A program made the position numbers and the translations under genes. A stretch of 33,481 bases of DNA, from positions 1 through 33,481 of the forward strand of contig CAYTHZ010000001.1 in NCBI GenBank assembly GCA_964437745.1, read 5' to 3'. Each line of letters starts with the position of its first letter. Within the stretch, counting starts at the first letter, position 1. Source of the DNA: an uncultured Candidatus Saccharibacteria bacterium. Lineage in GTDB: Bacteria > Patescibacteriota > Minisyncoccia > UBA6257 > CAYTHZ01. Under the pieces are notes generated by a model, which searched no databases, had not been told where the DNA came from, and saw only the letters and a program-made list of their open reading frames with translations. Of the stretch, positions 3,403-20,597 are shown piece by piece.

Positions 3403-4530
3403 TCATTCTTGTTTTAAAACTTCGTCGATTGATTTATATTTCTCCGTTATTTTCAGATCTTTTGCCACTTGTTCGTAAGTAATAAATCCCTTAAACGCGT
3501 TAAATCCTTTTTTTAATCCCGGGTCGGATTGATTTTCCGCAATTTTTAAAAGATAGGGGAGTGTTTGGGATGTAAGGGCGAATGTAGACTGGCGCGCAGC
3601 TTGTCCGGGCATATTGGTGACGCAATAAAATATTACGCCATTGTCGGTATAATAAATGGGATCGCTATGAGTGGTTGGCCGCGATAATTCTGTGCACCCG
3701 CCTTGGTCAATGGCAATATCAATCACAACCGCGCCGGGTTTCATTTTGGCAATCATTTCTTTGGTGATAATTTTCGGGGCAGTCGCGCCTTTTATTAAAA
3801 CCGCGCCTATCAATAAATCCGCTTGCGGCACGTATTCAGCCAACGTGTCCGAATTGGATTCAATTATCTTTACGTTGGAAAATTGGGAAAAATGAGATTT
3901 CAAGAAATCAAATCTCTGATCTTTAATTTGCAGCAATATTATATTACTTCCCATACCGGCTGCGGTTTCAGCCGCTTTGGTCCCGACTACTCCGCCGCCG
4001 ACAATCACTACTGTCGCTGATTCAACTCCGGTAATCTTTCCTAAAGTCAGACCTCTGCCTTTATATCTTTTTTTTAGATAATGCGCTCCTTCTTCAATTC
4101 CGATTACCGCGGCAACTTCGGACATTGGAGCCAAAAGAGGCAATCCGCCTTTTTCGTCTTCAATTGTTTCATAGGCGATTGCCGTTACTTTATTTTCCAG
4201 AAGAACTTCGGTAAGTTTCGGATCAACGCCGCTTAAATGCAGGTAGGTAAATAATATTTTTTCTTTCAAATATTTTAAAAAATCTAATTCTTGCTTTACT
4301 GGTTCTTTAACTTTTACTATAATGTCCGCGGTTTTCCAAATTTCTTCTGCGCTGTCTATAATTTCCGCGCCGGCTTTAATAAAGTCTTCGTCTGAAATTC
4401 CCGAGCCTAAGCCGGCGTTTTTTTGGACTAAAACTTGATGAGATGCCGCTTTAAGCGCCAGGACGCCGTCAGGAACAATAGCCACCCTTTCTTCGTTGTC
4501 TTTAATTTCTTTTGGAATGCCAATAATCAT
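3403..4530 (-). CDS. ald: Alanine dehydrogenase
   Basis: MIIGIPKEIKDNEERVAIVPDGV start, Rossmann VVIVGGGVVGTKAAETAAGMG, 375 aa. AAGGAG SD upstream. Confidence 0.9.
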   Translation of the reverse strand: MIIGIPKEIKDNEERVAIVPDGVLALKAASHQVLVQKNAGLGSGISDEDFIKAGAEIIDSAEEIWKTADIIVKVKEPVKQELDFLKYLKEKILFTYLHLSGVDPKLTEVLLENKVTAIAYETIEDEKGGLPLLAPMSEVAAVIGIEEGAHYLKKRYKGRGLTLGKITGVESATVVIVGGGVVGTKAAETAAGMGSNIILLQIKDQRFDFLKSHFSQFSNVKIIESNSDTLAEYVPQADLLIGAVLIKGATAPKIITKEMIAKMKPGAVVIDIAIDQGGCTELSRPTTHSDPIYYTDNGVIFYCVTNMPGQAARQSTFALTSQTLPYLLKIAENQSDPGLKKGFNAFKGFITYEQVAKDLKITEKYKSIDEVLKQE

Positions 4531-4580
4531 AGTAATTTTTATCTCCTTGAAATTTATTTTTAAGTTAAATATTCATTAAT

Positions 4581-4608
4581 ATAATACCATAAATATTTTT
4601 TTTTGCAA
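4581..4608 (-). promoter_or_regulatory. Putative sigma70-type promoter for ald
   Basis: Minus strand reads TTGCAA, 16 nt, TATTAT, about 50 nt upstream of the ald start. Confidence 0.35.
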
Positions 4609-4623
4609 GAAACTATAACGCTA

Positions 4624-4661
4624 TGAGTTATGAGATTTGAGTTATGAGATTTGAGATGCAA
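4624..4661. repeat. Period-7/14 tandem repeat (TGAGTTATGAGATT x2.5)
   Basis: TGAGTTATGAGATT at 4624-4637 and 4638-4651, then TGAGATG. Confidence 0.85.
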
Positions 4662-4671
4662 GAATATTGTT

Positions 4672-5742
4672 TTATCCATGTTTAATCAGCATTATGTCGC
4701 CGTCTTGAACAATATAATCTTTGCCCTCTAATTGCGCGACTCCCTTGTCTTTGGCATTATTCCATGATCCGGTTTCAATGAATTTTTCCCAATTTATCAC
4801 TTCGGCTTTGATAAATTTTTCTTTAAAATCAGTATGAATTTTTTCGGCCGCATCCGGCGCTTTTAGTCCCTGTTTTATCGGCCAAGCGCGGATTTCATTT
4901 TCATTCATTGTGAAAAAAGTTATTAAGCCGAGAGATTGATAAGCGGTTTGAATCAAAACGTTCAAATCCCAATCTTGGGCGCCGAGAGACTCAATCAGTT
5001 CGCGATCGCTTTCGTCAAGTTCTGAAATTTCCAAAATCAATTTCAAATCAGCGATAAGATAATTATATTTTTTTTCGGAAAGTTTTTTTAAAAAATCTTG
5101 CGGGATATCTTTTTCGTCTCCGTTTAAAATATAAATAAACGGCTTTGCGGTTAAAAGAGAGAGCGAAGATAGCATTTTTATTTCATTTTCTTCCGGTTGA
5201 TATTCTGACATCGGCTTGCCTTCGGAGATTAATTTTTTAATTTTTTCTATCAACGCTATTTCTTTTTGCGCTTCTTTGCTTCGGCTTTTGAGCTGGCTTT
5301 GCAAAGAATCGGTTCTTTTGTCTAATGTTTCCATATCTTTCAGTATTAATTCCAATTTCACTATTTCAATGTCGCGCCAAGGATTCACGGCGGCCTCCGT
5401 ATGAATTATCTTTTCGTTTTTAAAACAGCGCGCTACCAGTAAAATAGCATCGGTTTCTCGGATTTGAGCTAAAAATTGGTTGCCGAGTCCTTCGCCTTTA
5501 TTGGCGCCTTTTATGAGTCCGGCAATATCAACAAATTTAATGACTGCGGGAATGATTTTTTTGGCGCCGGATTTTTCGGCTATTTTTTGCAATCTTTTGT
5601 CGGGCACTTCAACGACGCCCACATTGGGTTCAACGGTGGTAAAGGGGTAATTGGCGATATCAACCGGATTTTTGGTTAATATTTTAAATAATGTTGATTT
5701 CCCGACATTGGGCAAACCAACGATACCGATAGATAAAGACAT
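4672..5742 (-). CDS. ychF: Ribosome-binding ATPase YchF
   Basis: IGIVGLPNVGKSTLFKILT P-loop, FVDIAGLIKGA, C-terminal TGS-like GKDYIVQDGDIMLIKH. 356 aa. Confidence 0.92.
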   Translation of the reverse strand: MSLSIGIVGLPNVGKSTLFKILTKNPVDIANYPFTTVEPNVGVVEVPDKRLQKIAEKSGAKKIIPAVIKFVDIAGLIKGANKGEGLGNQFLAQIRETDAILLVARCFKNEKIIHTEAAVNPWRDIEIVKLELILKDMETLDKRTDSLQSQLKSRSKEAQKEIALIEKIKKLISEGKPMSEYQPEENEIKMLSSLSLLTAKPFIYILNGDEKDIPQDFLKKLSEKKYNYLIADLKLILEISELDESDRELIESLGAQDWDLNVLIQTAYQSLGLITFFTMNENEIRAWPIKQGLKAPDAAEKIHTDFKEKFIKAEVINWEKFIETGSWNNAKDKGVAQLEGKDYIVQDGDIMLIKHG

Positions 5743-20109: not shown

Positions 20110-20166
20110 ATTTACGAAGCAATAATTAAGCGATCTTTCCTGCCTACCTTGACTTCACCGATGAGC

Positions 20167-20349
20167 GCGCCCATAGCTCAGCGGCAGAGCAGTCGTCTTT
20201 ACCCGCCTGCCAAAAGCCGCACCTGTAGCTCAGTGGCAGAGCAAGCGTCTTATAAGCGCTGGGTCGTAGGTTCGATCCCTACCAGGTGCACTTAAAGACG
20301 GCGGGCAGGTAAGCGACACGGGTCCTTGGTTCGAATCCAAGTGGGCGCA
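20167..20349 (+). tRNA. Interrupted tRNA gene: canonical acceptor, D and T arms, but the anticodon loop is replaced by a long helix carrying tRNA-Ile
   Basis: GCGCCCA (20167-73) pairs with TGGGCGC (20342-48), discriminator A. D arm GCTC-AGCGGCA-GAGC. T arm CTTGG-TTCGAAT-CCAAG. Anticodon stem GTCGT (20192-96) / GCGAC (20313-17). Then 20199-20211 pairs with 20300-20312 in 12 of 13 positions. Confidence 0.55.
20219..20290 (+). tRNA. tRNA-Ile (anticodon TAT)
   Basis: 72-nt cloverleaf: GCACCTG/CAGGTGC acceptor, GCTC-AGTGGCA-GAGC, AGCGT-CTTATAA-GCGCT, GGGTC, GTAGG-TTCGATC-CCTAC, discriminator A. CCA is not encoded. Confidence 0.9.
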
Positions 20350-20597
20350 GTTAAGGCGAAATAGACGCGGGTAAGCGCTGGGTTTTATCGGAGGCGGATA
20401 AACTCCGGTTCAATCCTTACCAGGCCTACCAGGCGCGCTTAAAATCAAGGGGTAGGTAAGTCGCTGTCCCTGGTTTAAATCTGGGCGCGTTCAAATTCAA
20501 TGTGAAGTTAGGCGCGGATAAACGTTGAGTTTTGCCGGGGGCGAACAAACCTTGGTTTAATTTATATTGAGCGCGCCAAACTTACGCTTAGCTTATA
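20350..20597 (+). pseudogene. Two decayed tandem copies of (tRNA-Ile 3' part + outer-tRNA 3' part)
   Basis: 20372-20383 is identical to 20253-20264 (TAAGCGCTGGGT). 20407-20424 matches 20269-20286 at 16/18. 20438-20489 matches 20291-20349 at about 70% by eye. 20490-20577 aligns to 20350-20438. Confidence 0.6.

Follow-up and report, generated by a model that had tools for sequence, protein, structure and literature searches.

What does a bacterial genome gain from, and how does it come by, a transfer RNA (tRNA) gene whose anticodon loop holds a second, complete tRNA gene? This question is raised by positions 20167-20349 of a 33,481-nt contig (CAYTHZ010000001.1) from an uncultured Candidatus Saccharibacteria bacterium; this whole stretch is called the window here. 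We refer to the outer tRNA gene as T1 and to the inner one as T2, and the fetched comparison loci are numbered L001, L002 and so on. T2 is a complete tRNA-Ile(UAU) gene at 20219-20290, within the anticodon loop of T1. From the comparisons described below, T2 is probably the working tRNA and T1 a relic, and the insertion of selfish DNA would have been tolerated since it carried a spare copy of the gene that it interrupted. The locus consists of the following parts.

20167-20201, plus strand: 5′ part of T1, with the acceptor strand, D arm, anticodon-stem 5′ strand and loop bases CTTTA (from the fold and excision; orthologous to L001 5007-5080 and L002 1060-1133).
20202-20218, plus strand: left end of the inserted element, CCCGCCTGCC followed by AAAAGCC (exact match to the family consensus CCCGCCTGCC-a..gCc).
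20219-20290, plus strand: T2, the cargo tRNA-Ile(UAU) and presumed working gene (called by ARAGORN and Rfam).
20291-20309, plus strand: spacer CTTAAAGAC and right end of the element, GGCGGGCAGG (right end exact to the family; pairs with 20202-11, including the family-typical C.A and G.U).
20310-20349, plus strand: 3′ part of T1, with loop bases TAA, anticodon-stem 3′ strand, 7-nt variable region, T arm, acceptor strand and discriminator (from excision and the fold).

T2 was the sole tRNA called in the window by ARAGORN and by Rfam (RF00005, 70.1 bits, 20219-20290/91). The T1 halves are genuine, because any in-silico deletion of the middle gave an ARAGORN tRNA with its start at 20167. The intron modes of ARAGORN (0-200 or 0-3000 nt allowed) left the outer gene uncalled, and relaxed thresholds gave spurious calls; in-silico excision was used in place of these modes to recover outer tRNAs. 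The minimum free energy fold of 20160-20355 was a nested double cloverleaf, in which the acceptor stem, D arm and anticodon stem of the outer tRNA lead through a rod to the inner cloverleaf, followed by the outer T arm. Its energy was -80.3 kcal/mol (z = -3.2), and none of 200 shuffled sequences was as stable. ARAGORN, Rfam, excision and the fold thus uphold the nesting given in a preliminary description of this DNA. The 5-bp anticodon stem (20192-96 / 20313-17), the 13-position helix with its single C.A and single G.U (20199-211 / 20300-312) and an alternative 10-bp helix were also found as described there.

Some details had to be revised. An intervening sequence of about 109 nt had been proposed; it is present, and its exact limits are 20202-20309, that is, a non-coding element of 108 bp that splits T1 between anticodon positions 35 and 36. 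The pairing of the rod stood as well, except that its three innermost pairs (TTA/TAA) do not belong to it, being anticodon-loop bases of the outer tRNA. The outer tRNA had been called otherwise canonical. Its halves are real, but exact excision leaves an 8-nt loop, CTTTA+TAA, with one extra T, in which ARAGORN reads a 4-base anticodon 'ttat', and the variable region exceeds that of the L001 and L002 orthologues by 2 nt. According to the sequence and the fold, the two T1 junctions stand opposite each other at the base of the terminal helix of 10 bp, within an internal loop (5 nt x 3 nt). The junctions lack the geometry of a 3-nt bulge, 4 bp and a 3-nt bulge, in agreement with the earlier view that this is not a bulge-helix-bulge motif. 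A group I intron had also been discounted, rightly so: no Rfam match except tRNA was obtained at the gathering threshold or at E<=10, and 72 of the 108 inserted nucleotides are tRNA. The alternative helix is formed by 20192-20201 and 20293-20302 (GTCGTCTTTA / TAAAGACGGC), so that the spacer that follows T2 can pair with the T1 anticodon stem and the beginning of its loop. This complementarity may be due to chance or may be a relic; none was seen in other nests viewed by eye, such as L254.

The predicted fold joins the T1 halves through the acceptor stem, the anticodon stem and the rod. It had been suggested, as one possibility, that T2 is freed by RNase P and RNase Z and that the paired T1 halves act as a two-piece RNA, either a split tRNA or a processing scaffold. 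However, the product would have a rod of about 18 bp in place of an anticodon loop and could not decode, a plain gene suffices in the relatives L001 and L002, and the outer halves are decayed or deleted in many other loci. We therefore consider this proposal very improbable. Split and permuted tRNA genes have halves that lie apart or in permuted order and are joined in trans; the T1 halves are collinear and 108 bp apart.

The identity of the outer gene was clarified by two relatives. L001 and L002 have the same gene order as the window, and their flanking dehydrogenases are 84% (L001) and 81% (L002) identical to that of the window. Between the dehydrogenase and the gene that follows, each possesses one tRNA-Ile(UAU) without interruption; these are empty sites. 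The tRNA-Ile of the relatives matches T1, not T2 (25 of 25 positions identical at the 5′ end in L001; 88% over 74 nt in L002). T2 and T1 are alike at 54 of 74 positions, and the stems of T2 differ with internal compensation. As judged from these alignments, T1 is the orthologue of the resident tRNA-Ile(UAU) and has the same identity as T2. Thus, it is not a Lys, Thr or suppressor tRNA, as had been suggested from the possible junctions. T1 reads as a recently disrupted tRNA-Ile(UAU), and T2 looks foreign. Relatives with a dehydrogenase of about 70% identity have lost synteny and carry no tRNA downstream; they were uninformative. In L123, a Parcubacteria relative at greater distance, the dehydrogenase is followed by an RNase HII gene (3464-5179) that is split by an intein with weak LAGLIDADG signals.

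To find the same arrangement elsewhere, one genome per species was scanned for two D arms 18-48 nt apart, a spacing that is impossible for ordinary tandem tRNA genes. At least 119 loci were obtained, and most of those listed carry names of the candidate phyla radiation (CPR, or Patescibacteria): Saccharibacteria, Levy-, Roizman-, Berkel-, Giovannoni-, Wolfe-, Gottesman- and Woykebacteria, and others. Among the matches listed, the inner tRNA has a perfect 7-bp acceptor stem in 38 loci, as in the window; in the same 38 loci and the window, the outer acceptor strand meets a perfect partner some 40-85 nt past the inner 3′ end. The ends CCCGCCTGCC...GGCGGGCAGG occur in the window, L026, L029, L064 and L122, and their opposite-strand reading, CCTGCCCGCC...GGCAGGCGGG, in L014, L023, L083, L101 and L119. 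Other end families exist, for example CCCCGTTAGA...TCTAACGGGG and GTTTGCC...GGCAAAAAC. The search for the same nesting that the preliminary description had called for thus showed a recurrent structure with identical element ends in many independent assemblies. The tRNA-in-tRNA arrangement recurs in well over a hundred other contigs of uncultured bacteria. Since the window is a metagenome-assembled contig, a chimeric join of two tRNA-Ile loci had to be considered. The junctions lie exactly at conserved family ends, and the same architecture is found in well over 100 independent assemblies. An assembly artefact is accordingly very improbable.

Several groups of loci depart from this pattern. A second arm family, (TTCA)CCCCGTTAGA...TCTAACGGGG(CAGG), is present in L011, L020, L025, L046, L048, L075, L103, L108 and L117, and it has the last bases GGGCAGG in common with the main family. 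Its junctions are often imprecise, with TT added or with 4 nt of a different anticodon loop, and several of its outer genes have no anticodon-stem 3′ strand. The sequence CCCGTTAGA also adjoins main-family elements in L180, L188 and L198. Outside the CPR, L040, L042, L043, L071, L073, L076 and L091 (Chloroflexota where named), L007, L018, L060 and L066 (Ignavibacteria/Bacteroidota) and L097 have a complete tRNA-Thr(CGU) that is preceded, at a distance of 26-41 nt, by a tRNA 5′ half with the acceptor GCCGACA or GCTGAAG. Excision rebuilds no outer tRNA in most of these loci, and CPR-type ends lie near the nest in none of them. A phage origin of the family was ruled against, because only four double-D-arm matches were obtained in 2.9 million viral contigs and none of them has the main-family ends. 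Three of the viral contigs, L133 (1666-1900), L134 (8094-8330) and L135 (1280-1520), belong to related phages and contain a nested tRNA without inverted-repeat arms. Their inner tRNA is complete (acceptor TCGCCCA/TGGGCGA), has an odd anticodon loop, CAGTGAG or CAGTTAAG, and lies directly inside the outer anticodon loop. The outer tRNA has the acceptor CTGGAAG/CTTCCAG and the stem CGCGC/GCGCG, and its loop remnants ATT...CCAACG resemble Trp CCA. These phage nests may represent a different route of nesting.

What, then, are the ends? Metagenome contigs were scanned with the pattern CCCGCCTGCC-N(78-108)-GGCGGGCAGG, and at least 120 loci were found. The two ends are the imperfect terminal inverted repeats of a family of elements of about 100 bp, and they extend inward as CCCGCCTGCC(AAAGCC)...(GGCAWT)GGCGGGCAGG. 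The repeats are imperfect at the same two positions (C.A and G.U when paired) in all members. The left end in the window, CCCGCCTGCCAAAAGCC, fits the family consensus. About 50 distinct units among the matches listed carry no tRNA. The spacing of their ends, 79-85 nt (mode 82), is sharply conserved, and sequence conservation reaches a few bases inward of the 10-mers, as far as CCCGCCTGCC-a..gCc and gg.a.t-GGCGGGCAGG; the remaining interiors are unrelated to one another. The base 3′ of the right end is T in 33 of these 50 units. The cargo-less units are located in AT-rich intergenic DNA, in the loops of other hairpins and in IS91-like transposase genes, where they introduce stop codons. The family occurs in both orientations and mostly outside tRNA genes. 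A reading of the rod as a splicing or processing helix that evolved for this RNA is not supported; the rod consists of the inverted-repeat ends of a widespread family.

No Rfam family covers the cargo-less elements. We considered that their interiors might be decayed tRNAs, and no tRNA signal was detected even at E<=5. Similarity of the interiors to their own targets did not rise above shuffled controls, and the cargo-bearing units differ in this respect. A target duplication or a TA-type target was also rejected, because the junctions are incompatible with either; no target-site duplication was found, and exact excision restores tRNAs with a 7-nt loop in 26 cases. In about 1.7 Mb of fetched loci, no convincing end pair spanning 0.3-4 kb, as expected of a long coding copy, was detected; the three pairs of that span lie in GC-rich contigs and have no extended ends.

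Two observations concern cargo-less elements in coding genes. Elements of 102 bp in L137 (174-275), L155 (2546-2647) and L195 (1084-1185) lie at the same codon (CPSC-CA/T-QKR) in the zinc-finger region of IS91-like transposase genes. The host genes differ by about 25% in DNA with the protein sequence kept, and the interiors are unrelated but of equal length; each brings an in-frame stop. These could be independent insertions at a preferred site or an old insertion in a still-working gene. In L025, a short cargo-less version of the ends (CCCGCCTGCGCCAAGGCTTCGGCGGGCAGG, 1770-1815) and a second small GC-rich palindrome (~1893-1925) lie in frame within an open reading frame (ORF) that is cysteine-desulfurase-like, the family being assigned by eye. 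It reads through as ...ARLRQGFGGQV... and ...ARGGSAFGGEK..., and these in-frame palindromes resemble the palindromic elements that are translated within Rickettsia genes.

The units that carry a tRNA follow a different rule from the cargo-less ones. For this analysis, exact excision took out everything between the initial C of the left end and the final G of the right end, these two bases included, and a restored tRNA had to be called by ARAGORN across the junction. The metagenome matches listed include 26 tRNA-carrying units. Excision gave back an outer tRNA for 16, 15 of which agree with the cargo in anticodon and strand. The restored types are Pro (UGG and CGG), Trp, Arg (UCG and CCU), Thr (CGU and UGU), Gly (CCC and UCC), Gln, Leu and Cys. 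A second small insertion confounds the one remaining case. The remaining 10 units are flanked by outer-tRNA halves or decayed remnants where their flanks were viewed by eye, which was not done systematically. In contrast, none of the 96 cargo-less matches listed restored a tRNA. In named genomes, we collected 16 loci with a tRNA between family ends, with one mismatch allowed per end. Fifteen of these restored an outer tRNA: 11 with the same anticodon, two with the same amino acid and another wobble base (L014 and L080), and two with extra T residues in the loop (L110 and the window). Taken together, excision restored 31 outer tRNAs. The anticodon is that of the cargo in 26 and specifies the same amino acid in two; in the other three the loop is damaged or re-interrupted. 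No other amino-acid identity was found among the 31, the loop-damaged calls aside.

Insertions lie in the anticodon loop (mostly between positions 35 and 36; 37 and 38 in Val), around the point where the D loop ends on its 3′ side, or in the T loop. Each tRNA type has its typical site: in Arg(CCU) the break is always close to the D arm's 3′ end (after position 21 or 23), and in Thr, Ile, Met, Gly and Pro it follows position 35. Relative to the tRNA, the asymmetric ends were present in both orientations (7 versus 19 among the metagenome matches listed), and the cargo is always co-oriented with the host tRNA gene. Both orientations of the ends are expected of a DNA element and not of an RNA splicing signal.

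These results bear on the possibility of a protein-dependent tRNA intron, in which an endonuclease would cut at both feet of the terminal helix and a ligase of the RtcB or Rnl type would rejoin T1, so that T1 and T2 would arise from one transcript. Exact excision does yield a perfect 7-nt-loop tRNA in many loci, the terminal helix retains its specific C.A and G.U positions, and the reading frame is conserved around the same-codon elements in the diverged IS91-like transposase genes. Moreover, a gene for a T4 Rnl1-type RNA ligase (PF09511) is present in L001 (80-1222), about 4 kb upstream of the tRNA-Ile. However, cargo-less introns would be harmless in tRNA genes, yet none of the 96 was there; a strict same-anticodon rule would be needless; asymmetric ends would not be expected in both orientations; and the outer genes are found at every stage of decay, the window itself giving an 8-nt loop on excision. 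L001, which bears the ligase gene, has no nest and lacks the newest insertion. The Pfam scan of window ORFs of >=80 aa (30 of 61) revealed no counterpart of this ligase, and its nearness to the tRNA-Ile is probably coincidental, though relevant to any idea of tRNA repair. Because of the missing cargo-less copies, the otherwise unneeded same-identity rule, the two orientations and the decay of the outer genes, splicing is disfavored, and we regard the intron as improbable.

The decay was followed in 97 double-D-arm loci with a closing inner tRNA among the matches listed. A recognizable outer tRNA was obtained after excision in 52 of them. A single excision regained the 7-nt loop with the anticodon of the cargo in 23 of the 52 and did not in 29. 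In the other part of the set, 45 of the 97, no outer 3′ half was present within 200 nt. The outer anticodon-stem 3′ strand is gone in L020 and L025, and L070, L172 and L182 contain further insertions. In L070 (5460-5510), a hairpin of about 40 nt (TCATGTCATCCGACATGACGCCCCGTCGAATGACGGGGCGA) lies additionally within the T loop of the outer tRNA-Val. The cargo is identical or nearly identical to the host in L221, L254, L233 and L196 (alignment scores of 124-143 of ~144), and in L164 it is close to the host with several differences (score 103). In L196, and in L254 on the 3′ side, the outer copy is itself bounded by the same ends, so that, by its sequence, one copy of the element appears to have inserted into another. 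In L026 and L083, one pair of CAU tRNAs is nested reciprocally.

Nests of more than two levels were also observed. L055 (5790-6090) is a three-level nest of three different tRNA-Thr(UGU), with the acceptors GCCCTTC, GCCGCCT and GCCGACG, each with a perfectly matching 3′ strand. Its arms, GTTTGCCTGAAGCAAATTTTT ... GGCAAAAAC, are of a different family, and the two left arms are the same in spite of the different tRNAs. L196 (2371-2980) contains at least six tandem units composed of a tRNA-Arg 5′ part, the left end and a spacer, the last five at an exact 70-nt period, and only two units composed of a spacer, the right end and a 3′ part. There is a small extra palindrome in the D loop of the outer 5′ parts. 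The imbalance of left and right units in L196 indicates that duplication or deletion also shapes these loci.

Relics of this kind flank T1 itself. One of them, an older tRNA-Ile shell, is called shell 0 here.

20130-20138, plus strand: 5′ relic of shell 0, anticodon-stem strand GCGAT and loop start CTTT (aligns with the anticodon stem, loop and left-end region of T1 and with the region upstream of the L001 tRNA; GCGAT pairs with GTCGC at 20460-64).
20139-20166, plus strand: decayed left end of an older element (CCTGCCTACC, 20139-48) and spacer before T1 (one mismatch to CCYGCCYGCC; complementary to GGGGTAGG at 20449-56; aligns with the newer left end and with L001).
20367-20428, plus strand: T2-like relic 3′ half, GCGGG/TAA GCGCT GGGT...GGTTCAATCC TTACCAGG, with a decayed right end before it and an extra insert (read from the sequence; part of unit A).
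20449-20489, plus strand: decayed right end (GGGGTAGG) and 3′ half of the shell 0 relic, TAA GTCGC ... CCTGG TTTAAAT CTGGG CGCG (pairs with the relic at 20130-48).
20511-20577, plus strand: further decayed relic, GGCGCGGA/TAA ACGTT ... GAGCGCGCC (homologous to 20367-20428).

Each relic 3′ half downstream of T1 follows a decayed right end and TAA. The relic at 20367-20428 opens with the same 12 bases, TAAGCGCTGGGT, as T2 20253-20264, and is T2-like in its T-loop and acceptor part. Unit A (20291-20441) and unit B (20442-20585) form a degenerate tandem pair of about 150 nt each. Upstream of T1, GCGAT CTTT CCTGCCTACC has a counterpart upstream of the L001 tRNA, GAGC AGCGAT TTTA TCCGTCTG CAAAACTT. 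Since the shell relic is shared with L001 and GCGAT pairs with GTCGC, T1 would itself once have been the cargo of an older element in an older tRNA-Ile. The alignment with L001 places this event before the split of the window and L001 lineages and suggests a process repeated at this locus.

In light of these findings, we put forward the following course of events, in which T2 is probably the functional gene. A small non-coding inverted-repeat element would enter the loop-coding part of an essential tRNA gene. The whole nest would be transcribed from the promoter of the host gene, and RNase P and 3′ processing with CCA addition would free T2, which would decode AUA. The T1 halves, paired through the element ends, would be junk and would be degraded. 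After a hit in a single-copy essential tRNA gene, the cell would survive only thanks to a cargo of the same identity and orientation. The interrupted gene would then decay, and the cycle may repeat on the new working copy to give Russian-doll loci. Among the fallbacks named earlier, that of a merely disrupted pseudogene is closest to the evidence; it misses that the disrupting element brought its own replacement tRNA.

Several points weigh against this proposal. All stems of T1 are still intact. No transposase was found in the window, no autonomous copy in the fetched loci, and no target-site duplication. The tRNA calls cover the 33-kb window, so that T2 is at most the presumed sole working tRNA-Ile(UAU) of the genome. 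The excess of left over right units in L196 means that tandem duplication also acts. Above all, cargo units were never seen outside cognate tRNA genes (26 of 26, versus 0 of 96 for cargo-less matches, among those listed). This is poorly predicted by random transposition with selection and hints at cargo-directed targeting or homologous recombination.

An alternative without transposition takes up this last point. Nests would arise by local duplication or unequal crossing-over and would spread when foreign DNA is taken up and recombines homologously; the outer halves would serve as homology arms, and a foreign tRNA cassette would replace the resident tRNA and leave it as a shell. Such a process accounts for cargo units that lie only in cognate tRNA genes, co-oriented and at a type-specific position, and for the reciprocal nests, in which the inner and outer tRNAs of L026 have changed places in L083. 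Most cargos differ from their host by compensated stem changes, which marks them as foreign functional tRNAs, and the unequal units in L196 and the tandem relic pair in the window also suit it. However, it leaves the origin of each nest type unexplained and offers no obvious drive for spread, and the approximately 50 cargo-less units with the same ends at unrelated sites, such as transposase genes and hairpin loops, imply that the ends are mobile alone. We consider it unlikely. Nevertheless, the typical insertion site of each tRNA type together with the many foreign functional cargos suggests some role for homology. The restriction of cargo units to cognate genes may result from local self-insertion and selection, from cargo-guided targeting, or from the spread of nested alleles by DNA uptake and homologous recombination. 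We place little confidence in any particular mechanism of movement. Tentatively, and with considerable doubt, one may imagine that the cargo tRNA steers the unit to the cognate tRNA gene by homology or structure; this would be an undescribed kind of selfish DNA, and CPR tRNA genes would be horizontally exchangeable cassettes replaced in successive nested waves.

The neighboring genes in the window are housekeeping genes: GAPDH, D-glycerate dehydrogenase, DivIC, YebC, a NiFe hydrogenase set and DnaK/DnaJ. Together with this gene set, the names of the closest homologues of the window proteins assign the window to a CPR bacterium of Parcubacteria/Portnoybacteria-like kind. A Pfam scan of ORFs of >=80 aa (30 of 61) detected no integrase, transposase or RNA ligase in the 33-kb window, and a scan for promoters and terminators near the locus gave no signal above chance.

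How does the family compare with known systems? MITEs (miniature inverted-repeat transposable elements), the Rickettsia palindromic elements and REPINs are short inverted-repeat or palindromic elements that insert into genes. The present family is similar to MITE-like elements in being short and non-coding, with terminal inverted repeats, conserved ends, a variable interior, many unrelated sites and some copies in coding genes. The window element has 108 bp, no coding capacity and conserved ends, its family occupies at least 120 metagenome loci, and L001 and L002 provide empty sites. It differs from MITE-like elements in that there is no target-site duplication, exact excision restores the tRNA, and no cognate transposase is known. 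Furthermore, part of the family carries a tRNA and is confined to tRNA genes that share its identity, a restriction of which we found no description. Models based on integron attC sites, dif/Xer and IS200/605 hairpin ends, considered by their consensus sequences, do not appear to fit.

In archaea, a box C/D RNA resides within the intron of tRNA-Trp, and such introns are spliced at a bulge-helix-bulge. As in the window, a functional RNA gene is thereby embedded in a tRNA gene at or next to the anticodon. The archaeal introns (for tRNA intron types, see PMC4090602) are removed by the splicing endonuclease at the bulge-helix-bulge and leave a functional tRNA; in the window, the junctions are opposed at the foot of a 10-bp helix, the host is a bacterium, and the evidence is against splicing. 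Group I introns interrupt the anticodon loops of bacterial tRNAs (bioRxiv 10.1101/2020.01.27.920355), and in this respect they are similar to the insert in T1. However, they are self-splicing with a catalytic core of ~200 nt or more, whereas the insert has 108 nt, is mostly tRNA and has no Rfam intron match.

The closest likeness in outcome is to integrative elements of the P4-like and pNOB8-like integrase type, by which a model of how tRNA genes are disrupted in Caldiarchaeum has been given (PMC3293823). There too, mobile DNA inside a tRNA gene supplies tRNA sequence so that decoding is kept, and displaced tRNA fragments remain as relics that can accumulate. Nevertheless, those elements span kilobases and encode an integrase, whereas the window element has about 110 bp, no gene and no attachment-site (att) repeat. 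They recombine at att sites and give a hybrid tRNA from the host 5′ part and the element 3′ part, whereas here a whole tRNA is brought and both host halves lie outside it. Correspondingly, we found no integrase by the tRNA, and the cargo is complete and not a 3′ segment. The relic 3′ halves downstream of T1 resemble att scars, but a right end of the element precedes each of them.

The preliminary description knew of no bacterial tRNA within a tRNA, and our literature search, which dealt with CPR/Patescibacteria tRNAs that are nested, interrupted or intron-bearing and with the motifs of the element ends, likewise found no description, with most subscription journals outside its coverage. The nesting of tRNAs by tiny elements that carry a spare is thus apparently widespread and undescribed. 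For genome annotation, tRNA finders miss or miscall the nests, ARAGORN and Rfam reporting the inner gene only, and the outer halves are better flagged as pseudogenes than as intron-containing tRNAs. The proposed process accounts for puzzling tRNA fragments and "double D-arm" loci in CPR genomes. If it is correct, a mobile element could occupy essential single-copy tRNA genes as long as it supplies a copy of its own, a gene-free answer of about 110 bp to the problem that integrase elements solve with kilobases. Cargo-guided insertion, if true, would be a new principle of targeting. For these lineages with tiny genomes, the nests would imply frequent horizontal replacement of tRNA genes and a layered fossil record of it.

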